A stretch of 64,000 nucleotides of DNA from Candidatus Kapaibacterium sp. (GTDB taxonomy: Bacteria; Bacteroidota; Ignavibacteria; Palsa-1295), in contig JBBQGG010000002.1 of assembly GCA_038322815.1 (NCBI GenBank), forward strand, positions 41,899-105,898. The letters are read 5' to 3'. Positions 3,695 through 39,803 of the stretch are shown here, piece after piece. Under the pieces are notes generated by a model. The model was not told the origin of the DNA and searched no databases. It worked only from the letters and a program-made list of their open reading frames with translations. The first letter of the stretch is position 1, and each line of letters starts with the position of its first letter. The translations under genes were made by a program, and so were the position numbers.

Positions 3695-5050
3695 TTATAT
3701 ATACTTCTCCGGCTCCAATCCCTTCAACCTTTCCCGAATTTCTTTTTCTTTTCCGTATTCTGTCGGATCGTAATAGATTTTATCTTTTAATTCTTCGGGC
3801 AGGCAATTCATTTCGGCATGGGCGTTTTCTTCGGAGTGCGCATATTTGTAGCCTTTGCCGTAGCCAAGTTCTTTCATGAGCTTTGTCGGCGCATTGCGGA
3901 TATGCAGAGGGACGGGAAGATCGGGATGAGCTTTAATATCTTCCATTGCCTTGCCGATGGCAGTTGTTGCCGCATTGGATTTCGGCGCAGCGGCAAGATA
4001 GGCAGCCGTCTGCGAAAAGATGAGTTGCGATTCCGGCCAGCCGACTGAACGGATCGCCGTCCAGCAGCTTGTCGAAAGTACAAGCGCCATCGGATCGGCA
4101 TTGCCGATATCTTCGGAAGCAAGAATCACCATCCGCCGCGCGATAAATTCAGGATCTTCGCCGGCATCTATCATTCGTGCAAGCCAGTAGATCGCAGCAT
4201 TGGGATCGGAGTTGCGCATGGATTTGATAAAGGCGCTGATAATATCGTAATGCATTTCGCCGCCTTTATCATATCGCGATGCTTTACGTCCGAAAGCACT
4301 TTCAACTATTTCCTGCGATAGATGAATTTCTTTTCCGGATGCAGCAGTAAGTGATACTCCAAGTTCAAGTGCCGAAAGCATCTTGCGGACATCTCCGCCG
4401 GATAATGCAAAGAGCGCTGTTTTCGCTTCCGGTTCAAAGGTGATCTGTAAGTTTTTTAATTCTTCATCCTGCTTCAATGTCCGTTGCAAAACTTCTTCAA
4501 GATCGCTTTCGCCAAGTGATTCAAGAACATAAACCCGTGTTCGTGATAGAAGCGGAGAAATAACTTCGAATGAAGGATTTTCGGTCGTTGCTCCGATCAG
4601 TGTGATAGTGCCGTCTTCCACTGCACCAAGAAGTGCGTCCTGTTGCGATTTTGAGAAGCGGTGAATTTCGTCTATGAAAAGTATGCTGCGCTTTTTATTG
4701 CGTGCATTCGATCGGCGAGCTTCGTCTATCGTTTCGCGCAATTCTTTTACTCCGCTTGAAACTGCGGATAACGAATAGAACGCTGTGCCTGCATTTTGCG
4801 CTAATGCTCTGGCAATCGTCGTCTTCCCTGTTCCGGGTGGTCCCCAAAGGATCATAGAATAAATATTTCCCGAGCGTGACATCTGCTCAAGGGGCTTGCC
4901 TTCGCCAATGAGATGCTTCTGCCCGACGATATCGTGAAGTGTTTTCGGACGCATCCTCTCAGCAAGCGGTGCGAACCGATCAGCAGGATGAAATCCTTCT
5001 CCGAAGGTTTCCTGCCCAGAGGATGAATGCTGTTCGTTCTGTTTTCGCAT
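3695..5050 (-). CDS. rarA: replication-associated recombination protein A (AAA+ ATPase)
   Basis: It has a Walker A motif (GPPGTGKTT) and RarA/MgsA-specific C-terminal helical domains. Confidence 0.9.
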   Translation of the reverse strand: MRKQNEQHSSSGQETFGEGFHPADRFAPLAERMRPKTLHDIVGQKHLIGEGKPLEQMSRSGNIYSMILWGPPGTGKTTIARALAQNAGTAFYSLSAVSSGVKELRETIDEARRSNARNKKRSILFIDEIHRFSKSQQDALLGAVEDGTITLIGATTENPSFEVISPLLSRTRVYVLESLGESDLEEVLQRTLKQDEELKNLQITFEPEAKTALFALSGGDVRKMLSALELGVSLTAASGKEIHLSQEIVESAFGRKASRYDKGGEMHYDIISAFIKSMRNSDPNAAIYWLARMIDAGEDPEFIARRMVILASEDIGNADPMALVLSTSCWTAIRSVGWPESQLIFSQTAAYLAAAPKSNAATTAIGKAMEDIKAHPDLPVPLHIRNAPTKLMKELGYGKGYKYAHSEENAHAEMNCLPEELKDKIYYDPTEYGKEKEIRERLKGLEPEKYI

Positions 5051-5229: not shown

Positions 5230-6438
5230 ATGCATATAATCAGGATGTTTGCGGTATTTTTTCTGCTTTTATTAAGCAGAGGATATGCATTCTCGAATGG
5301 AAAAAATCCTGAGCGGCAATACAAAAAATTTTTACAAAAAATAACAAAAATAAAATCCGGTAAAATTTCGTATGAATTGGATAAAAAACCATTTTACAAA
5401 TCCAATTCCCGCAAAGATTTATACCAACTTGAATACACTCGATCAGAAACCGATTCTAATAAATATGCTCTTTGGATACATATCCCGGAATTGGGTGTTG
5501 ATGAGATATATTCAAATGATACCGCTCACACCGTCTGGCACAAGAAGAAGGTCATCACATGGAAGAGAATGACTCCCGGCGAATACAGGGATGAAGTAAG
5601 CAACGATCTCTCAAACTTTACATTTGGTATCCCTGGTTCAATAATCAAGAAAACACTTTCTACGGACACACTTTTTTCCGACACAATTATTAATCGCAAT
5701 GCTTTTGTTAAGATACTGAAAACAAATAAACTGAAGGGTCACAATGCAGACTCCACTGAAACATCTTTTATTTTTTCATTGGAAGATAATAATAAAATGA
5801 CCTTTGAAAATAAAATTTGGCGTGATGGAGAAGTACAGATTTTTCAGGAAAAAAATCGACAGGCTGTGTATTCTGATTTTTTCGATATCTTTCTTGCAAA
5901 GAGAATACATGATTACCTCCATCATCTACTTCGCGACTCTAATTATACACTTGTTGCTGAGGATGATTTCTCTCCTTTTCAAGATTCAGGGAAACAAAAA
6001 TTCATTCAAGTAGGAGATACTTTTCTTTCTGCCGGTTACCAGACAATTGCCGGGGAAGATATAGATATTTCGGAATTTCATTCGAAATTAACACTCTTGG
6101 ATTTTAGTTATATGGCTTGTGAGCCCTGCAGGCAGTCTATTCCTTTTATTGTGAATCTTTTCAAAAAATATCAGGATAGTGGTTTGAGAATATGGGGTAT
6201 TGATCCATTTGATAAAAAGGAAAAAGATATTTTTTTACGATACGCATCAAGATACCATATAGATTTTCCTATGCTCTTTACTGATAAAACTAAAATGAAA
6301 GAAATAGGTATCAATGGTTATCCGACGTATGTGCTTCTTGATAAAAATATGAAAGTTCTCTCTGTATTCAATGGCTTTGGACCATTATCTGTTGATTCAT
6401 TTCTTGAACCTCAGATAAAGGATTTTCTCCGCAGATAG
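5230..6438 (+). CDS. secreted protein with C-terminal TlpA-like thioredoxin-fold domain (CEPC motif)
   Basis: It has a signal peptide. The C-terminal ~130 aa carry a CxxC motif (MACEPCRQ) and redoxin-like secondary-structure motifs. Confidence 0.55.
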   Translation: MHIIRMFAVFFLLLLSRGYAFSNGKNPERQYKKFLQKITKIKSGKISYELDKKPFYKSNSRKDLYQLEYTRSETDSNKYALWIHIPELGVDEIYSNDTAHTVWHKKKVITWKRMTPGEYRDEVSNDLSNFTFGIPGSIIKKTLSTDTLFSDTIINRNAFVKILKTNKLKGHNADSTETSFIFSLEDNNKMTFENKIWRDGEVQIFQEKNRQAVYSDFFDIFLAKRIHDYLHHLLRDSNYTLVAEDDFSPFQDSGKQKFIQVGDTFLSAGYQTIAGEDIDISEFHSKLTLLDFSYMACEPCRQSIPFIVNLFKKYQDSGLRIWGIDPFDKKEKDIFLRYASRYHIDFPMLFTDKTKMKEIGINGYPTYVLLDKNMKVLSVFNGFGPLSVDSFLEPQIKDFLRR

Positions 6439-6539: not shown

Positions 6540-6715
6540 GTCATTTCGAACGGAGTCTGCCGCGACGAAGGAGCGGGAGACGTAGAGAGAAATCTATATA
6601 ATAAGAATAAGTCATTATTTCTTCTCCCTATTGGGAATTTAAAGGATCTATTCTTATTAATAGATTTCTCTCTCCTTTTCGCTCTTGGGGAGCGAAACTC
6701 CGTTCGGAATGACAA
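6540..6715. repeat. ~175-bp imperfect palindromic (MITE-like / cruciform) element
   Basis: A left arm gtcatttcgaacggagt...agagagaaatctatataataagaataag pairs with a right arm cttattcttattaatagatttctctct...actccgttcggaatgac. Each arm has an internal hairpin. A half copy lies at 16355-16412. Confidence 0.5.
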
Positions 6716-12338: not shown

Positions 12339-14216
12339 ATGAAAATCTTTACGAAACACACAGTATATATATTCTTACTACTGAGCTCTTTAGCATTATC
12401 TAACTCTGCGCGCGCAGATGATGATTATGATATAGGCAACCCGACTCTAAAAGAGATATGGGTTGATCCCGTACACGGTCTTGATCTGCCCAATAGGGGT
12501 TCTACCCGCGCTTTAGCTCTTAAATCTGTTACGAAAGCATGGGCGCAAATTCCTCAGACCTTGCATAATACCGGATATATAATATGGCTGACACCGGGGA
12601 CATATTCTCCTGATGACGTTCCGACAATATTTCAATCGGTCTATGGTACGGCGGATAACCCTGTTATCTTTCAAGCGGCAGATGATACAGGCGCCGTCAT
12701 CCTGCCTTCGATAGATGTTACAACCTGCCAGTATTTTTACATGATCGGTATTCACATTACACATTCCGGTGCAAGCCAGGGATCCTATGCAATAAATTTC
12801 AGGGCATGTGACCATATACTTCTTCGTCATTGTACATTCACCGGTTCTGATTCTACTTCAAGTGATACTGCTTTTCTCGGAGCCGGTTTTTACCAATGCC
12901 AGCATACGTATCTCGAGCATCTAGAGTTTGACAAAACATCGGGCAGTGCAATTGATCTCTATGCATCGCAATACGGACATATTAAGAATTCTTCGATCCA
13001 TAATTACGGAGAAAGCGGAATACTCCTGCGGGGCGGCACAGCATATTTTTCAATTCAGGAAAATACCATATTTTCCGGAAATGGCGGCGGTATAACCTGT
13101 TACTCGCCGGATACGGGCAGAGGTATAGATAATTTGGTGATGCCGTGGGCTCATTATGAAGTGTATGATATTAAATGTTTTAATAATATTATTCATCATA
13201 CTCATGCAGCAGGGTTTTCCTGCAGTGGAGGATATAATATTCTCTTTGCACATAATACTCTCTATCAGACAGGATTAAATAATTCTCTCGTGATCCTCGG
13301 ACTTGCCAGGCGCGCTCGGTCTATTGATATTGATATTGCACGTGAGCGTATTGATTCCGGTGCATGGGGCACATGGTATCTCGACCGTGCCGATAGCGAT
13401 GCCGCCCCGATCCCTAATAAAAATATTTTTGTTTATAATAATGTCTTTCTTAATACGTCTGATTCTGCAACGACTTCATCACATTTCACTATTGCCGGAC
13501 CGGCAACTACAATCGCGTTTAACGCTTCATGCCCAAAGCCGGCATTTGCAGATGATAACGTGAAGATCAGAGGCAATATTATTTGGAACGGCAAATCAAA
13601 AGATCTTGGTATCAACCCAAGTTCAGGATGCGGTCCATCGAATCCGTCCTGCAATCAAACCCAACTCTATAGTGATAACCTGATCAATTCTGCCGAACCG
13701 GAATTTTTGAATGCCGCAGCCGGAAATTTTCATCCAACTCGCGGAAGCATTATCTATACCCTTGCAAAAGCATTTCCCATTCCGGATTTTTCATGGACAG
13801 GACTTCCTCCAAAACCGCATGAGCCGACAGGAAACACATCGAACAGCATTCCATTCGATAGAGATAGTAACCACCGCAATCCGAGTTTACCTATAGCAGG
13901 TGTGTTCGATATTTCAACATCTACGGTTGACGGCAAGGTAAATCTTCAGGATAATATTTCTCTTTTGCAGAATTTCCCTAATCCGGCACATACGATGACA
14001 ACGATCGAATTCCGCTTACGACACCATGCTCAGGTTACGCTGGAAGTTTACGATATTCTTGGAGTAAAAATTGCAACGCTTATCTCAGAGGCGCTCGAGC
14101 AGGGCGATCATTTGGTAAATTGGAACACTTCGACACTGGTAACAGGCAAATACTTTTACCGTATAGTAACAGAGAATACCACGCAGACGAAACAAATGAC
14201 AATCGTAAAGTTTTAA
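12339..14216 (+). CDS. right-handed parallel beta-helix (pectin-lyase fold) protein with T9SS C-terminal sorting domain
   Basis: It has a signal peptide, beta-helix repeat motifs (NNIIHHTHAAGFSCSGGYNILFAHNTLY) and a C-terminal sorting domain. Confidence 0.7.
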   Translation: MKIFTKHTVYIFLLLSSLALSNSARADDDYDIGNPTLKEIWVDPVHGLDLPNRGSTRALALKSVTKAWAQIPQTLHNTGYIIWLTPGTYSPDDVPTIFQSVYGTADNPVIFQAADDTGAVILPSIDVTTCQYFYMIGIHITHSGASQGSYAINFRACDHILLRHCTFTGSDSTSSDTAFLGAGFYQCQHTYLEHLEFDKTSGSAIDLYASQYGHIKNSSIHNYGESGILLRGGTAYFSIQENTIFSGNGGGITCYSPDTGRGIDNLVMPWAHYEVYDIKCFNNIIHHTHAAGFSCSGGYNILFAHNTLYQTGLNNSLVILGLARRARSIDIDIARERIDSGAWGTWYLDRADSDAAPIPNKNIFVYNNVFLNTSDSATTSSHFTIAGPATTIAFNASCPKPAFADDNVKIRGNIIWNGKSKDLGINPSSGCGPSNPSCNQTQLYSDNLINSAEPEFLNAAAGNFHPTRGSIIYTLAKAFPIPDFSWTGLPPKPHEPTGNTSNSIPFDRDSNHRNPSLPIAGVFDISTSTVDGKVNLQDNISLLQNFPNPAHTMTTIEFRLRHHAQVTLEVYDILGVKIATLISEALEQGDHLVNWNTSTLVTGKYFYRIVTENTTQTKQMTIVKF

Positions 14217-14236
14217 ATTCTCTTTCATATACATTC

Positions 14237-15055
14237 ATGCTTCGGTATTTTATCCGGGTTTTTATTGTATCTTTTCTTATCCACAACGTGGCAATGCCTT
14301 TATTCTCCCAAACATATAAAGGCAAACCTGTTTCGCATGTTTCTCTTATCGCCGGCAACATTCTTTCAGGCAAAGGTTTTACCCTTGGGATCAAAATGGA
14401 TCTCGAGCCGCAATGGCATGCCTATTGGAAAAACCCCGGCGATGCCGGTTTGCCAATGACAGCGAAAATAACAGATGGACATGGATATACTTCCGGCGAG
14501 CTGCGATATCCAACGCCGCATAAATATAAAACCGGTGATGAAGTTCTTTTCGGTTACGATTCTGAAGTTGTTTTTTTGCTTCCAATAAAAGTATCTCCGG
14601 GAGCAGGATCGCAGCCACAGTTCAAAGTAAAGCTCACTTGGCTTGCCTGCAAAGAAGTTTGTTTGCCCGGCGAAGCTACACTTGAGTTCAGATCCGATAC
14701 GATCAGCCCTCCTCAGCGGAAAGAAAATCAAAGATTGCTTGATCGCTGGACGGCAAGGCTTCCTCAGCCGGGAGAAGGATTTAATTTAGATAAGGTCGGA
14801 ACAACGGTTACCGAAGTAAATGGAAAGCTTTCGGTCTTTATGAAATTTTTAGAAATGGCTCCGGGCACGATCACTGATTTCTTTCCCGATGTGATCGAAG
14901 GATTTGTCGCCGACCATGCAAATATTGTCATAGGGGAAACCGGTATTACACTTTCACTAACCCCTGAAAGTAAGGCTTCGAAGCTCTCCGAAATAAAAGG
15001 ATTAATTCTTATCGGAACAAGCGGGTACGAAGTGAATATTCCGGTCAGGAATTAA
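14237..15055 (+). CDS. DsbD N-terminal (alpha) domain-like thiol:disulfide interchange protein
   Basis: It has a signal peptide starting MLRYFIRVFIVSFL. The segments WHAYWKNPGDAGLP and LTWLACKEVCLPG resemble the DsbD-alpha domain. The 14120 start of the track ORF overlaps the preceding gene and is rejected. Confidence 0.45.
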   Translation: MLRYFIRVFIVSFLIHNVAMPLFSQTYKGKPVSHVSLIAGNILSGKGFTLGIKMDLEPQWHAYWKNPGDAGLPMTAKITDGHGYTSGELRYPTPHKYKTGDEVLFGYDSEVVFLLPIKVSPGAGSQPQFKVKLTWLACKEVCLPGEATLEFRSDTISPPQRKENQRLLDRWTARLPQPGEGFNLDKVGTTVTEVNGKLSVFMKFLEMAPGTITDFFPDVIEGFVADHANIVIGETGITLSLTPESKASKLSEIKGLILIGTSGYEVNIPVRN

Positions 15056-15117
15056 GAATCTTCAGAAACAAGGCGGCCGATCATCCGTTTAATCTTTTTT
15101 ACAAATGATCTGCAATT

Positions 15118-15729
15118 ATGAAAATGATCGCTTTTTTTCTGAATATATTTTTGACTATGCTTTTTTTCGCACCTGCAATTGTTAGTGCCGATCCTCCCCT
15201 CACGGGCAAAGCTGCTCCGAGCTTCACCTTGAATGACGTAGATGGTAAACCTGTCAAGCTTTCTGATTTCAAAGGCAAGATCGTTGTTCTCGAGTGGATC
15301 AATGAAGGCTGTCCCTTCGTCAAAGGACATTACGAAAATGGGAACATGCCATCATTGCAACAGAAATATACTGCCCAAGATGTTGTATGGCTGACGATCA
15401 ATTCCACCCGTCCGGATAACTCCGAAGCATACAATGCTGGGCAGAGTAAAGAGATACTTGCGAAGTGGCATTCACATGCGACTGCAAATTTAATGGATGG
15501 GGACCGCACGGTCGGTCATCTTTATGATGCTAAGACAACTCCGCACATGTTCGTCATCGATAAAGACGGAATCCTCCGTTATCAAGGTGCAATAGATGAT
15601 GATCGCTCAGCAGGCGGCGGAAAAAAAGCAACGGTGAACTACGTAGCGCAAGCACTTGATGCACTTCTTGCTGGAAAAGAAGTTGTAACCAGTACGACAA
15701 AGTCGTATGGCTGTTCGGTGAAGTATTAG
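15118..15729 (+). CDS. secreted thioredoxin-fold (redoxin-like) protein
   Basis: It has a signal peptide. The segment VLEWINEGCPFVKGHY is redoxin-like and the overall fold looks thioredoxin-like. Confidence 0.55.
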   Translation: MKMIAFFLNIFLTMLFFAPAIVSADPPLTGKAAPSFTLNDVDGKPVKLSDFKGKIVVLEWINEGCPFVKGHYENGNMPSLQQKYTAQDVVWLTINSTRPDNSEAYNAGQSKEILAKWHSHATANLMDGDRTVGHLYDAKTTPHMFVIDKDGILRYQGAIDDDRSAGGGKKATVNYVAQALDALLAGKEVVTSTTKSYGCSVKY

Positions 15730-15824
15730 AGAGAATGTAGAAACGAGAATAATGAACATTCCCGTTTCTCTGCTACAACCATTCTCCCGTTAAAATCCGA
15801 TGTTAAGCTTTATGGCCGCGATCC

Positions 15825-16034
15825 TTAGTTCGGATCGAAGGCAAACCGTTCAAGGATGATGCCGCCGGGTTTATGATTTAAGCAAAAGAGAACTCTGTTC
15901 CTGCCGTCAGATGAGGGAATGGTAACTCCTCCGAGATATCCGGAATACCCGCAATACTTACAGCATCCCATTTTTTTGATCTCGGCGTTAAATCTTTCTT
16001 TTACTAGTTTGTCTCCAATCGCTGTCTTTTCCAT
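15825..16034 (-). CDS. small Cys-rich hypothetical ORF (doubtful)
   Basis: Only ORF-track support. It lies inside the scar region between the redoxin gene and its relic fragment. Confidence 0.2.
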   Translation of the reverse strand: MEKTAIGDKLVKERFNAEIKKMGCCKYCGYSGYLGGVTIPSSDGRNRVLFCLNHKPGGIILERFAFDPN

Positions 16035-16220
16035 TGTCGTATGTCGTTATAGTCTGTTAAGAAGTAATGATGAATTATTCCGGTCTTTGAATCGGTGATC
16101 ACCATGACTCGGAAGTAGTAATATAACGAACGTTGCTCGGGCGATGTGACGTACTATCCCTTAAAAATAAAAAAAAACGAAGAGCCTGCTTTCTCTCTCC
16201 TTTTTTTTTCGGATCGGGCA

Positions 16221-16340
16221 GGCATACTCCGCTACCAGGGCGCAATAGATGACGACCGCTCAGCAGGCGGCGGCAAGAAATCCCACATCAACTAAGTCAT
16301 GAAAGCCCTCGACGCCCTCTTGGGCGACAAAGCGGGGCAT
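16221..16340 (+). pseudogene. relic fragment of the last ~40 codons of a redoxin paralog/xenolog
   Basis: It translates to YQGAIDDDRSAGGGKKSHIN(TAA)VMKALDALLGDKAGH. The 15118..15729 gene ends ...YQGAIDDDRSAGGGKKATVNYVAQALDALLAGKEV. Third positions in the fragment are GC-rich, unlike the host. Confidence 0.5.
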
Positions 16341-16354
16341 TAAGGTATTTTTTT

Positions 16355-16412
16355 TATTTGTAGATTTTTCTCTACCTCTGTCGCTATCGCGCCAGAGTCC
16401 GTTCTAAATGAC
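16355..16412. repeat. half copy (right arm) of the palindromic element at 6540-6715
   Basis: The sequence tagatttttctctacctctgtcgctatcgcgccagagtccgttctaaatgacaagg aligns to 6655-6712. Confidence 0.4.
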
Positions 16413-16427
16413 AAGGTTGAGATGCTG

Positions 16428-17234
16428 TCAGCTCTTAATAACTATCGCTTGTCCGCTCGGCATGGCAAGCGGCTGTTCGGGCTTGTTAGCGAAAAATTCA
16501 TCCACTGCTTGTCTTGCACCCGGGCAGGTCGGAAAACCGTAATCATCGAAAATGATAAAGCCGCCGGGCATGAGGCGCGGATAGATGAAATCTAATGAGT
16601 CGAGAATGGATTGATAAATATCGACGTCAATATGTGCGAAGGAAATTTTTGAAAATTCCAAGCCTTTGAACGTATCGGGAATAAATCCTTTATGGGTGAC
16701 GACCAGATCTGGATACCCGACTCTGCTAGTGACAACTTCTTCGCTCGTATCTTTGAAGTCTCCGCTCTTATGCCAATCTTTTTGTGCATTCACATCAGGC
16801 ATTCCCTCAAAGGTATCAAAGAGATGAAGTTTGGTGCCGCTGTGCTTTCCGTATTCAGCAATGACCTTTGCAAGCAGGATCGCCGTGCCGCCTTTATAGA
16901 CTCCACATTCCCAGAACTCGCCGCCGAGAGCAAGCGCTTGTTTACCAAATGTATAGAGCACGTAACACCTATCTGCGGTGACAAGGGTATATTTTTCTGC
17001 GGCTTCGACGAAAGGTTTGAACTCGCCATAACCCAGCCAAGGACTGAAATATGGTTTATAAAACTGCGCATCGGGAATTCCCCGCACCGTTTTTACCTTC
17101 TGTACCTTTAATGAAGTGAAAAGATTGATGAATCTTTCTATCTTTTTGAGCATAGTATATAATGATGAGGTAGAAAAACCCGATTTAGCTAACTCACGTG
17201 CCAGAAATTTTTCGAAGAATGGAATTACAACCAC
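16428..17234 (-). CDS. TylF/MycF-family (macrocin O-methyltransferase-like) SAM-dependent methyltransferase
   Basis: It has the motifs GEFWECGVYKGGT, HLFDTFEGMP and FIIFDDYG. The true start may be the downstream Met at 17153. Confidence 0.75.
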   Translation of the reverse strand: MVVIPFFEKFLARELAKSGFSTSSLYTMLKKIERFINLFTSLKVQKVKTVRGIPDAQFYKPYFSPWLGYGEFKPFVEAAEKYTLVTADRCYVLYTFGKQALALGGEFWECGVYKGGTAILLAKVIAEYGKHSGTKLHLFDTFEGMPDVNAQKDWHKSGDFKDTSEEVVTSRVGYPDLVVTHKGFIPDTFKGLEFSKISFAHIDVDIYQSILDSLDFIYPRLMPGGFIIFDDYGFPTCPGARQAVDEFFANKPEQPLAMPSGQAIVIKS

Positions 17235-18016
17235 TGCTTTTGCACCCTATCGGTATTATCCGCACTCCGTTTGCCGACAGGGTGGATGCTCCGCGTCAGC
17301 CGGATCATAAAGGCGAAGGCTCTTCGGGAAAGATCATTCTCGAACCCGGGCATAATTTTGAGCAAGCTTTGGAAGATCTTGAGGGATTTGAAAAGATTTG
17401 GCTGCTCTATCAATTTGATCGCAATACAAATTGGAAACCGAAAGTGCTTCCGCCGCGAGGTGATAGGATAAAGCGCGGAGTGTTTGCAACGCGTTCGCCT
17501 CACCGGCCTAATCCCATAGGACTTTCGCTTGTCACAGTACTTGAAGTTAACGGAAGAAATATATATGTGGATGGAGTTGATATCCTCGATAAAACTCCTC
17601 TGTTCGATATTAAACCATACCTTGCTTATGCAGAAGCTTTTCCCGATGCAAGATCAGGATGGCTTGAAGAAACTATTCATAATGAATCTTTAAAAGAGCG
17701 ACGCATTTTTATCATAGATGGCCTTGCCCGTGAACAATTGCAGTGGCTCAATAAAAATTTCCGGATCGATCTTCTCCCTATTGCTGAAAGAGTATTAGAA
17801 CATGATCCTTTTCCTCATCCATCAAGGCGAATCTTCAAAGAAAAAAACGGCGAATTTATGATCGCCATTAAAAGCTGGAGACTTCGCTATCGGATCGAAG
17901 AGAATACCATTGTCATCGTTAAAGTCGAAAGCGGATATACAGCAGAAGCTTTGCGATCAAAGAATGGAATAATTCATCAGGAAGATGCTCATGAAGCATT
18001 TCACAGATCATGGTAA
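17219..18016 (+). CDS. trmO: tRNA (N6-threonylcarbamoyladenosine(37)-N6)-methyltransferase TrmO (YaeB/TsaA family)
   Basis: It has the motifs PIGIIRTPF, PNPIGLS and VDGVDILDKTPLFDIKPY. The ATG at 17219 is preferred over the GTG at 17198. Confidence 0.7.
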   Translation: MELQPLLLHPIGIIRTPFADRVDAPRQPDHKGEGSSGKIILEPGHNFEQALEDLEGFEKIWLLYQFDRNTNWKPKVLPPRGDRIKRGVFATRSPHRPNPIGLSLVTVLEVNGRNIYVDGVDILDKTPLFDIKPYLAYAEAFPDARSGWLEETIHNESLKERRIFIIDGLAREQLQWLNKNFRIDLLPIAERVLEHDPFPHPSRRIFKEKNGEFMIAIKSWRLRYRIEENTIVIVKVESGYTAEALRSKNGIIHQEDAHEAFHRSW

Positions 18017-24220: not shown

Positions 24221-24264
24221 TTCTCGGAACCACCCCATAGGTGCCTATATGTTCAAGTAGTTAT

Positions 24265-24329
24265 CAGTCGTTAGTCTTGTGTCGTTAGCAAAATTATGCT
24301 AAAGACACAAGACTAACAACTAACGACTG
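24265..24329. promoter_or_regulatory. 65-bp imperfect palindrome with GTTAG/CTAAC pentamer repeats immediately upstream of the umuC-like ORF
   Basis: The left arm cagtcgttagtcttgtgtcgttagc pairs with the right arm gacacaagactaacaactaacgactg. Confidence 0.4.
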
Positions 24330-24398
24330 CTCTTCATTATCGGACTCATTGACTGCAACAATTTTTACGTTTCCTGCGAGCGGACGCTCGATCCTTCG

Positions 24399-25727
24399 TT
24401 GAATGGGAAACCTGTTGTCGTGCTTTCGAATAACGATGGCGTTGTGATCTCGCGCTCGAACGAAGTGAAGGCGATGGGCGTCTCGATGGCAGGGGCTGCG
24501 TATCAGTACCGCGATCTGTTTAAGAAGTACGGCGTCCGTGTTTTTAGTGCGAATTTTAATTATTATATGCAGGTCTCCGAGCAAGTCATGCGCATCGTGC
24601 GCGAGTACTCGCCGGAAGTGGAAGTCTATTCCGTTGACGAAGCATTCATTAATCTGCGCGGATTGGAATGGAAAAAACCGACGGAGTATCTTCGCGGATT
24701 ACGCGAGCAAATTTTGCAGGAAGTAAAAATTCCAGTCTCTATCGGCATTGCCGAATCGAAAACTCTGACAAAGGTATGCTCCGAATTTGCAAAGAAAGAT
24801 CCGTTACATGAAGGCATACTAAATCTCTATGGTCTGCCTGAAGAGCGAAATGAGTATTTGCGTGAACTCAAAGTCGGCGATCTTTGGGGAGTGGGCAGGC
24901 AGTTCGAAAAATTATTGCATGAGAAGAAAATCTTTCATGCCTTAGAACTTGTCAATATGCCGGATCAATGGATCTTAAATCATTTGCATATCGGCGGATT
25001 AAAAATGGTCTGGGAATTGCGAGGAATTTCCTGCATTGAATTTGCGCCGAATCTTGCAGCTCCGAAGCAGATCATGCGTTCACGGTCGTTCGGAAAATAT
25101 GTTACTTCGCTTGCTGAATTAAAAGAAGCGGCTGCACTTTTTATGAGCATGGCAGCCGAATCGCTTCGCGCTCATAAACTCGTTGCCAAAGTTGCCGGAG
25201 TATTTGTACATACCAATCGCTTCAATGACGATCCGAAATATTCTAACTCAGTTGCCGATGCACTCATCGAACCAACGTCTTACACTCCTGCGCTCATTGC
25301 CCATGTGCATAGGTTGCTTGATCATATTTATCGCGAAGGTTTCCGATATCAAAAGCTCGGCATTATCTTAAGCGATCTTGCCGAAGGAGATGAGAAGCAG
25401 CTTACGCTTTCGTACGATGCGCGTTCCGAAAAAAAACAAGAGTCTTTGATGCATACGCTCGATACTTTAAATGCCAAATACCGCGAGAATCATCTTGTTA
25501 TGCTTGCTGCCGAAGGCACGGAGCATGGCTGGCAATCAAAGCAGGAGCATCTTTCGCAGGCAAAACCTGAATATGTCGATCCAAAAGAACGCACGCGTTT
25601 CCTCACCACAGTCTCAGCTCCCGCAACAACATCAAAACGCAAAGACCGCTATACGCTTGAACCGGCAATGCAATCACGAGCGCTGGGTAAACAAGTTGCT
25701 GATAGAATTATGATGGCGGGAAATTAA
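24399..25727 (+). CDS. umuC: Y-family translesion DNA polymerase, UmuC-like
   Basis: It has SNNDGVVISRSNEVKAMG and the catalytic SVDEAF. The conserved N-terminus (LIDCNNFYVSCERTLDPSLNGKPVVV) is in frame upstream to about 24324, with no ATG, GTG or TTG there. The track start at 24399 is a TTG. Confidence 0.8.
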   Translation: MNGKPVVVLSNNDGVVISRSNEVKAMGVSMAGAAYQYRDLFKKYGVRVFSANFNYYMQVSEQVMRIVREYSPEVEVYSVDEAFINLRGLEWKKPTEYLRGLREQILQEVKIPVSIGIAESKTLTKVCSEFAKKDPLHEGILNLYGLPEERNEYLRELKVGDLWGVGRQFEKLLHEKKIFHALELVNMPDQWILNHLHIGGLKMVWELRGISCIEFAPNLAAPKQIMRSRSFGKYVTSLAELKEAAALFMSMAAESLRAHKLVAKVAGVFVHTNRFNDDPKYSNSVADALIEPTSYTPALIAHVHRLLDHIYREGFRYQKLGIILSDLAEGDEKQLTLSYDARSEKKQESLMHTLDTLNAKYRENHLVMLAAEGTEHGWQSKQEHLSQAKPEYVDPKERTRFLTTVSAPATTSKRKDRYTLEPAMQSRALGKQVADRIMMAGN

Positions 25728-38449: not shown

Positions 38450-38474
38450 ATTGTTTTGCATCAGAAAATGTGAT

Positions 38475-38554
38475 TGAATTTCGTGATACAAAAATGGCGA
38501 ATATGAATACCCGAATTGTCACCAATCTTTCAGAGGATTGTCAAAAGATTGTCA
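38475..38554. promoter_or_regulatory. conserved ~85-bp upstream module, copy 1, with direct repeat GATTGTCA-aaa-GATTGTCA (11-bp phase)
   Basis: It is about 85% identical to 39721-39803. It lies 5' of the minus-strand gene that starts at 38449. Confidence 0.45.
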
Positions 38555-38597
38555 TATAGACGAGATCGAACTTTAAGGCTAAAAATACCGTCGTATT

Positions 38598-39641
38598 TTA
38601 CGCTTGAGAGATTGCCCTGGTTCTGGTTTTTAGAAGCGCAATTATTTCTTCTTTATTTCGAGGAGGATTTTGTAGTTCAACAAAATGACGGACTAAAATG
38701 TCATATCGTTTGAACATAAGAAGGAGCCAAACCATAATGAAATCAATGCCTGAAAATATGATCGCGCCCCGATTCTTATACATCTCATTATTCTGCTGGA
38801 ATTCAATAGGCATATCTGTCCAGTGAAGCGAGGATTTGTGATGATGTCCAATATGATAGCCATCATTAAAGCTCCGGCGGTTATAACGACTGTTGATGAG
38901 GGTAATGCTACTCGCGAATGGATCTTCAGGACGAGAGGGGTCAATAAAAGCATGTTGTCCCCAATTTCCAGCAATCATTACAAAACGACAAAAAATGAAT
39001 GGAACAATAAAGACGACCAGTGTTGCCTGCCAGTTTATTAAACATAAAGCGGCAACAGAGAGAAAAAAACTAATCTCACCGGCAACTATGCGAATGAGCA
39101 GTTTCCGACGCCGCTTCTTCGCCATGTAAATGGTGAGATTGAAAAAAGTACCGAAGAAGAAACGAAGAAAATATCTAAACCAGCCAGTGAATGAGTCTCT
39201 CTGATAGTTCATAGTCGAACTAAGATCGGCTTCAAGATTTTCTTCGACATGATGCATCCCGACATGATGGACAAAGTATGTCTCGGGCGATTCTCCAAAA
39301 AGCGGGCCAAGTATCCAAACAATATATTGATTAAAAATCCGGTACTTTTTGCGAAAGAGCGGACGATGACTCGTATTATGGAGGATCAGAATGAATCGGT
39401 CCATATAAAAAAAGATATTAAAGGGCACATAGAGCGCCAGTATGATCCAATGAGGAGAGCCGAGATAGATGTAAAATACGAGAGGCACAATAACTAGAGT
39501 CGCTTCTATCAGGAAGCGCATAAAAGGCAGATCGCGGGGATCATTAATAAGTCGAAGGAGGAACCTGTCAAAAAAATTATTCGAGGCTTTCGGCTTGTAT
39601 GTCGGATCTGTGATGGTCAGTATATTTGTACTTTCTCTCAC
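38598..39641 (-). CDS. membrane fatty-acid desaturase family protein
   Basis: It has three His boxes (HNTSH, HHVGMHH and HIGHHH), with TM helices between them. Confidence 0.8.
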   Translation of the reverse strand: MRESTNILTITDPTYKPKASNNFFDRFLLRLINDPRDLPFMRFLIEATLVIVPLVFYIYLGSPHWIILALYVPFNIFFYMDRFILILHNTSHRPLFRKKYRIFNQYIVWILGPLFGESPETYFVHHVGMHHVEENLEADLSSTMNYQRDSFTGWFRYFLRFFFGTFFNLTIYMAKKRRRKLLIRIVAGEISFFLSVAALCLINWQATLVVFIVPFIFCRFVMIAGNWGQHAFIDPSRPEDPFASSITLINSRYNRRSFNDGYHIGHHHKSSLHWTDMPIEFQQNNEMYKNRGAIIFSGIDFIMVWLLLMFKRYDILVRHFVELQNPPRNKEEIIALLKTRTRAISQA

Positions 39642-39720
39642 ATTAACTCAGTTATATATAGAACACTTACTGAGACATTATTATTCGTTGATTTTTTCAT
39701 TACTCTTCAAAAAAATGCAA

Positions 39721-39803
39721 TGAATTTCGTAATACAAAAATAGCGAATTCGAGAACCCGAATTGCCACAGAATCTTCAGATAGTTGTCAAAAGATTGTCA
39801 TTA
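39721..39803. promoter_or_regulatory. conserved ~85-bp upstream module, copy 2 (AGTTGTCA-aaa-GATTGTCA), between desaturase start and response-regulator end
   Basis: It aligns to 38475-38554. Confidence 0.45.

Follow-up and report, generated by a model that had tools for sequence, protein, structure and literature searches.

The segment from 15730 to 16427 of the analyzed 64-kb window (the window being the whole stretch of DNA under analysis, to which all coordinates refer unless a locus is named) is a 0.7-kb insertion between tightly packed conserved genes, and it is made up of a small gene, a dead redoxin piece of 120 nt, and one half of a hairpin repeat. Neither a mobile element nor a new system, this scar is the commonplace residue of earlier DNA exchange. 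The first-pass observation proved to be largely correct. The explanation that we favor, with modest confidence, is that the redoxin piece is the dead remnant of a xenologous redoxin allele, which was left by illegitimate or one-sided-homology recombination as a lineage-specific filling of a variable hotspot. The features of the segment, of its surroundings, and of the related loci are compiled in Table 1.

Table 1. Features of the insertion, its neighbors, and comparable loci. Coordinates are those of the window unless a locus is named.
Feature	Location	Strand	Description or basis
Complete hairpin-repeat copy, reference	6540–6713		Fold, blastn
Intact resident redoxin gene	15118–15729	+	203 aa, secreted thiol-disulfide oxidoreductase/peroxiredoxin type; Pfam, synteny
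Reference copy of the direct repeat, redoxin codons 151–190	15568–15687	+	Within the resident redoxin gene
Imperfect 13-bp stem-loop	15738–15776		Spacer of the convergent redoxin and ORF69 genes
ORF69	15825–16034	-	69 aa; phmmer homologues
Non-coding stretch upstream of ORF69	16035–16220		A9 and T9 runs; presumed junction with the redoxin fragment
Predicted redoxin pseudogene fragment	16221–16343	+	Equivalent to codons 151–190; internal TAA 16293–16295, end TAA 16341–16343
Truncated hairpin-repeat copy, one arm	16348–16412		Match to the complete copy 6540–6713
TylF-type SAM methyltransferase gene, right-hand neighbor	16428–17234	-	Pfam TylF, E 1e-25
Further members of the ORF69 family	L163 5001–5210; L164 5001–5261		
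103-aa gene at the redoxin/TylF junction	L169 876–1124; L170 731–1042	-	
153-aa gene at the redoxin/TylF junction	L002 1044–1505	-	With signal peptide
210-aa gene at the redoxin/TylF junction	L082 6604–7236	-	

The segment is framed by two conserved genes. The product of the intact redoxin gene on the left matched the Pfam families AhpC-TSA (E 2e-16) and Redoxin (E 1.5e-12), had weak ResA/TlpA-like matches in NCBIfam, and has syntenic orthologues with 73–89% identity in about 17 relatives. The TylF-type protein on the right showed 82–96% amino acid identity to its counterparts in the relatives, and no anomaly of the third-position GC content (GC3) was visible along its gene. Further to the right, the TrmO-type protein encoded at 17198–18016 has a C-terminal extension that is weakly similar to ParE toxins, with a Pfam E value of 9.5e-4 that misses the cut-off. 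In the spacer between the redoxin gene and ORF69, folding of the region 15727–15830 resulted in -28.3 kcal/mol for the minus strand (z -3.0, with 0 of 200 shuffled sequences as good) and in a z value of -1.2 for the plus strand, and the stem-loop in this spacer is possibly a terminator shared by the two genes.

The sequence from 16221 to 16340 is colinear with codons 151–190 of the resident redoxin gene, as the first-pass annotation had recognized at the protein level, and the repeat finder reported the two as a 98-nt ungapped direct repeat with 73% identity. That annotation had allowed for the possibility that the resemblance is not significant at the nucleotide level, but a blastn comparison of the first 60 nt of the fragment with the whole 64-kb window yielded 83% identity and an E value of 2.7e-13. 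With tblastn against the same window, 31 of 44 amino acids were identical to the resident redoxin (E 2e-14), and the fragment also matched the redoxin orthologues in all close relatives. The two copies share exact runs of 17 nt (CGCTCAGCAGGCGGCGG, the longest) and 11 nt, and homology continues on both sides of the longer one. The distance between the intact gene and the fragment, previously given as about 490 bp, was measured to be 491 bp.

The reading frame of the fragment is disrupted and incomplete. The in-frame stop codon mentioned earlier was found at codon 175, where TAA replaces Tyr175, and the frame terminates at a second TAA directly after codon 190. A frameshift had been described as well; the codon-by-codon alignment stays in frame throughout and does not need one. 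The fragment had also been regarded as a displaced 3′ end of the gene, but it is truncated on both sides. It is devoid of the first 150 codons, the Cys codon of the CPF active site among them, and of the last 13 codons, which include the YGCSVKY tail that is conserved in all relatives examined. These two absences make it an internal gene fragment rather than a displaced 3′ end, and the combination of colinear homology with a disrupted, incomplete frame characterizes 16221–16343 as a predicted pseudogene fragment of the AhpC/TSA-Redoxin type.

The substitutions between the two copies give information about the history of the fragment. In codons 151–170, 10 nucleotide differences occur together with 0 amino acid differences, the pattern left by purifying selection; all 10 are located at third positions, and in 9 of them an A/T of the resident gene corresponds to a G/C of the fragment. 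In codons 171–190, third positions account for 16 of 30 differences, and the synonymous ones among codons 176–184 again run from A/T in the resident gene to G/C in the fragment. The resulting GC3 is 0.725 for the fragment versus 0.25–0.27 for the resident segment, in a host with a composition of 42% GC. When 1517 forty-codon windows of long ORFs in the 64-kb window were used as background (mean 0.40, sd 0.09), the fragment turned out to be a 3.5-sd outlier, with only 0.07% of the windows reaching its value, in agreement with the GC-rich third positions of the first-pass annotation. In the relatives, GC3 of the equivalent segment ranges from 0.27 to 0.65, in all cases below that of the fragment. 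The value of 0.65 was found at two loci (L167 and L168) though these have only 45–48% GC, showing that high local GC3 is possible within the clade and that composition alone is not proof of a foreign origin. The third-position identity between fragment and resident gene is 0.50, and orthologues of different species have values of 0.3–0.7.

Because the differences in the first 20 codons are exclusively synonymous and directed to G/C, and because GC3 is an outlier, the parent of the fragment was, for most of the time since the two copies diverged, a functional gene with another codon usage. A non-functional local duplicate would be expected to accumulate changes at all codon positions with a bias towards A/T, which is not the observed pattern. 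The earlier hint at a horizontal origin thus gains support in the form that one of the two copies was acquired horizontally or had a separate functional history, as indicated by the synonymous G/C-directed differences and by GC3; for a foreign origin of the fragment itself, the evidence is the composition and the substitution pattern of no more than 40 codons.

The fragment peptide is a true member of the redoxin orthologue clade of the window. It carries SAGGGKK, the motif of the window's sub-group, and its residues S171, H172, I173, and M177 are present in other members of the clade. Using a chimeric query of redoxin plus fragment, its best peptide match among the best 120 of 7,910 homologues was P0014, with 30 of 37 residues identical. 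The allele sought as donor is a redoxin gene that encodes ...GGGKKSHINYVMKALDALLGDK... with G/C-ending codons, and the search for it also covered 160 loci from redoxin-protein scans of genome and metagenome contig collections. The fragment was not identical to any of 124 homologues or about 170 loci, so that the donor allele was not found among them. A search of viral contigs did not reveal a match to the fragment peptide pattern, nor was there a match in the plasmid database.

Next to the fragment itself, its genomic context was compared with about 17 loci of Kapaibacterium/Ignavibacteriota-like MAG contigs, which were retrieved by two collection scans and contig look-ups. The gene order common to these relatives is a beta-helix protein, a DsbD_N protein, and redoxin, followed in opposite orientation by the TylF-type methyltransferase, TrmO, and YebC. 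An empty site, which the first-pass annotation had proposed to look for, is present in six relatives, with redoxin and TylF genes that overlap or are at most 100 bp apart. The stop codons overlap by 4 nt in two of them (L165 and L166), the spacing is about 16–30 bp in two others (L003 and L004), and it is about 90–100 bp in the remaining two (L167 and L172). The same annotation had considered that relatives may carry an intact second redoxin gene at this site. No second redoxin, redoxin fragment, ORF69, or hairpin element was found at any of the about 17 loci.

Other relatives carry genes at this junction. The two closest relatives (L169 and L170, with 87–89% identity for redoxin and 94–96% for TylF) have a 103-aa gene, and L002 and L082 have genes for a 153-aa and a 210-aa protein, respectively (Table 1). 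The junction genes of L169/L170, L002, and L082 are unrelated small minus-strand genes, and they are placed after the redoxin stop codon without any duplication of redoxin sequence. Those of L002 and L082 were also compared with the scar as potential kin and proved to be unrelated to it. Because the two conserved genes of the relatives nearly touch or enclose other genes, and none of the relatives has parts of the scar, the 698 bp of the window represent an insertion at a site whose content varies between members of the clade. By the same comparison, the redoxin/TylF junction behaves as a general hotspot of insertion and recombination in Kapaibacterium-like genomes. At three loci (L001, L168, and L171), the region downstream of redoxin is rearranged to LuxR-type and TPR genes. 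These three loci have a GC-rich palindromic repeat directly after the redoxin stop codon (L001 7030–7075, L168 ~4572–4620, L171 ~978–1085), with the sequence CCCTCTCCCGGTACTCCGGGAGAGGG followed by GGGGTGAGGG.

The right-hand end of the segment is formed by the half hairpin repeat. The first-pass annotation had assigned it as a truncated copy of the palindromic repeat at 6540–6715, and this was corroborated: the truncated copy corresponds to one arm of the complete element, with 76% identity over 71 nt (blastn, E 3e-8). A search with the two arm motifs resulted in 3 hits each, compared with 0.03–0.07 expected, and the window holds one full and one half copy. The complete element is a 174-nt near-perfect hairpin with the termini GTCATTTCGAACGG.../...CCGTTCGGAATGAC, which has a predicted folding energy of -88 kcal/mol (z -10.0) and lies ~100 nt downstream of another thioredoxin-fold gene (5230–6438); the fold of the half copy is not significant (z -0.6). 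The element was absent from 164 relative loci in an exact-motif search, and blastn did not detect it there either. Rfam returned only sub-threshold generic-hairpin matches for the element and no match for the region 14000–18000. A hairpin flanked by A9 and T9 runs had been described upstream of the fragment; the runs exist (16169–16177 and 16201–16209), but the structure between them is weak, and folds around the runs were no better than those of shuffled sequences (z -0.4 to -1.1). A second degenerate copy of the arm was considered at 16190–16204 and was judged unsupported, as it consists of a borderline 15-nt CT-rich exact match.

REP/BIME- or MITE-like elements are intergenic hairpin repeats. 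The 6540–6713 element resembles them in being a non-coding 174-nt hairpin that occurs more than once, with a partial copy in the scar, and differs from them by the lack of a match to a curated RNA family and of an associated transposase in the window. Other repeats of the window are a 76-nt perfect-centre palindrome at 24256–24331, which has 38-nt arms with 82% complementarity and is located just upstream of an impB/umuC-type polymerase gene (24399–25727), and a 95-nt direct repeat with 78% identity (38461–38555 and 39707–39801, 1.2 kb apart) that flanks an ORF at 38598–39641.

The 69-aa ORF of the segment had been called doubtful, a view that did not hold. A phmmer search of 1.84 billion cluster representatives retrieved the two full-length homologues P0002 (69 aa, 51% identity, E 1.5e-16) and P0003 (86 aa, 58% identity, E 2e-16). 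A third match, to a repetitive 4447-aa protein, was disregarded as it aligns only in a short low-complexity stretch. The alignment of ORF69 with P0002 and P0003 has 25 invariant columns, which include C24, C27, C50, and H53 in the motif CxxC ... CLNH, and the protein is probably zinc-binding. DNA-level conservation at the homologues is confined to the coding part. With full-length conservation of this kind, ORF69 is a genuine conserved small protein gene. The family is very small, with 3 cluster representatives of 69–86 aa in the 1.84 billion; Pfam, NCBIfam, and PHROG did not yield a match for ORF69, it was not found in viral contigs, and its AF2 model is of low confidence (pLDDT 62). The homologues reside in unrelated neighborhoods, one of them at a different spot of a genome that is related to that of the window (MgsA 84% identical). 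A short hairpin repeat with the termini GTCATTCTGAG.../...CAGAATGA is present just downstream of the homologue in L163 (~5340–5400). These termini resemble those of the window element, which may be a coincidence in repeat-rich genomes. Homology of the non-coding stretch upstream of ORF69 (16035–16220) to any relative locus was not found.

The genes to the left of the segment exhibit a change of affiliation. For the beta-helix protein and the DsbD_N protein, the window is sister to L001, with identities of 86% versus 62–69% for the others and 82% versus 71–74%, respectively. For redoxin, the window is closest to L169/L170 (88%) and has 80.8% identity to L001, which in turn groups with L081 and L002. 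The nucleotide identity between the window and L001 falls from 0.83–0.92 to about 0.6–0.8 near 14900, at the 3′ end of the DsbD_N gene, indicating a putative inter-lineage recombination breakpoint in one of the two lineages. On the other side of the segment, GC3 and identity profiles did not reveal a mosaic tract in TylF.

The favored explanation, a dead remnant of a xenologous allele, would involve the following steps. The segment would be a lineage-specific filling of the normally tight junction of the convergent redoxin and TylF genes. The parent of the fragment would have been a functional gene with G/C-ending codons in a related lineage, and the fragment would have entered through recombination with foreign DNA in which either both junctions were illegitimate or, in the manner of homology-facilitated illegitimate recombination (HFIR), one was homologous and the other was not. 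It would have been trimmed later by deletion, probably in one event that extended from codon 190 to the middle of the adjacent hairpin repeat and that would have removed the gene tail and one repeat arm together; a later loss of the tail, the other arm, and the loop is suggested by the abrupt switch from the fragment to the inner hairpin arm. ORF69 would be a genuine small accessory gene in its own right at this hotspot. We infer the mechanism of recombination, the order of events, the direction of exchange, the relation of ORF69 to the arrival of the fragment, and the fragment's lack of a present function. The exchange could also have run in the opposite direction: the fragment could be the former resident allele, which was displaced by the incoming present redoxin together with ORF69, and the loss of similarity to L001 at about 14900 would fit this.

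Two described groups of recombination products are similar to the scar. Insertions produced by HFIR typically measure about 1 kb and lie next to backbone genes (PMC3240628), and the scar shares with such products the foreign patch next to conserved sequence, the small variable segment between backbone genes, and the lack of a recombinase; unlike them, its putative event is reconstructed from one genome. HFIR has also been put forward to account for remnants of gene ends that lie displaced downstream of an allele that was replaced (PMC5361080). The orphan fragments of Rhs, CDI, and T6SS effectors, which are ascribed to the exchange of one allele for another in a recombination event that was illegitimate on one side (PMC5361080), are likewise truncated, non-expressed pieces of an alternative allele downstream of an intact gene. 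However, they belong to polymorphic toxins with immunity genes, are often reusable, and build up arrays (PMC5361080), whereas the gene concerned here is a housekeeping-type redoxin with a single 40-codon fragment that has no true end and no immunity-like partner.

An unlikely but still serious alternative to the remnant of a recombined allele is the insertion of a complete foreign islet that carried a whole second, xenologous redoxin, the redundancy of which then led to deletions down to 120 nt. It accounts for the substitution and GC3 patterns equally well, and it is consistent with the truncation of the fragment on both sides and with the adjacent half hairpin, which suggests at least one later deletion. 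However, a second copy or an intermediate does not exist in any of the about 17 relatives, including the closest ones (L169 and L170), and more events have to be assumed than for the direct capture of a fragment. The partial deletion of a paralog, which had been one of the two proposals of the first-pass annotation, survives only in this form of a deleted foreign second copy; its other forms do not.

The other proposal had been site-specific integration into the 3′ end of the gene. Genomic islands and prophages integrate into the 3′ end of genes for tRNAs or proteins and thereby duplicate the att site, and in the present case a small, now decayed mobile element would have integrated into the 3′ part of redoxin and replaced the gene end. 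The geometry of a direct repeat with a 17-nt exact run, the empty site in relatives, and the variable cargo at this spot in other lineages would all be expected, and the bracketing of inserted DNA by a partial gene repeat is shared with such islands. Nevertheless, this reading is very unlikely. Integrase, transposase, excisionase, or other recombinase genes were found neither inside the 0.7-kb segment nor among its neighbors up to about 10 kb away, which are housekeeping genes. The two copies are 27% diverged and are homologous on both sides of the exact run instead of having just an att core in common. The displaced copy, which is predicted to be the native one after such an integration, is devoid of the last 13 codons and stands out in its composition. 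In addition, the insert is only 0.65 kb, the cargo of the relatives lies after the stop codon without redoxin duplication, and no link to viruses or plasmids emerged. Site-specific integration is therefore not supported, and the lack of a recombinase, of viral or plasmid matches, and of an att-type repeat agrees with capture of foreign DNA by illegitimate or one-sided-homology recombination.

Even less probable is that the redoxin-TylF junction was duplicated locally in tandem and that the extra copy then decayed neutrally. The order and orientation of a complete gene, a minus-strand ORF, a fragment, and a complete TylF gene would fit, and the peptide of the fragment equals that of the resident gene over 20 residues. 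As a sign of such a duplication, a decayed TylF 3′ fragment was indeed considered as its origin, but tblastn did not detect any similarity. Furthermore, all 10 differences in codons 151–170 are synonymous and 9 of them are directed to G/C in a genome with 42% GC; this is the opposite of neutral decay and largely refutes the duplication, and the divergence of the two copies equals the level between species.

The likelihood that the fragment has been kept for a function is smaller again. It might act as an RNA that is antisense to, or mimics, the 3′ region of the redoxin mRNA (by read-through from TylF), or an ORF at 16146–16295 might be expressed. The peptide of the first 20 codons is perfectly conserved up to about the stop codon of this ORF, and the exact runs of 17 and 11 nt shared with the resident gene could allow RNA pairing. 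However, neither an Rfam match nor a significant structure was found, the fragment is absent from every relative, and the history of the parent gene fully accounts for its conservation. We attribute a similarly slight chance to the view that ORF69, the hairpin arm, and the captured fragment are remains of a new, tiny, integrase-less cassette that moves between intergenic hotspots and picks up pieces of neighboring genes, a view prompted by the ORF69 homologues at different spots in related genomes, or that the fragment is an antisense or decoy RNA for redoxin mRNA.

The arrangement of redoxin, ORF69, fragment, and half arm is not an assembly artefact, because two independent Logan assemblies from different runs (contigs L161 and L162) are 100% identical to the window from 11825 and 12946, respectively, to 16401. 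Both contigs stop at 16401 within the repeat arm, a hint at additional arm copies of nearly the same sequence or at a variant in the population, and only the source assembly connects 16402 to TylF. A chimera of two co-occurring strains, to which the metagenome-type source assembly and the break of the Logan contigs at 16401 might point, is the least probable of all readings given that these assemblies agree completely from redoxin through ORF69 and the fragment into most of the half arm, and given a TylF synteny as in the relatives.

Taken together, the case calls for caution in annotation: the fragment should be flagged as a pseudogene, and a gene call for the 69-aa ORF is warranted. Wider consequences would arise only if the fragment or ORF69 were functional or mobile, and more work might be worthwhile only on the ORF69 family and on the hairpin repeat. 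For the biology of these uncultivated Bacteroidota/Kapaibacteria, the scar illustrates neatly and on a small scale how scars made of gene fragments remain at hotspots after recombination between lineages.
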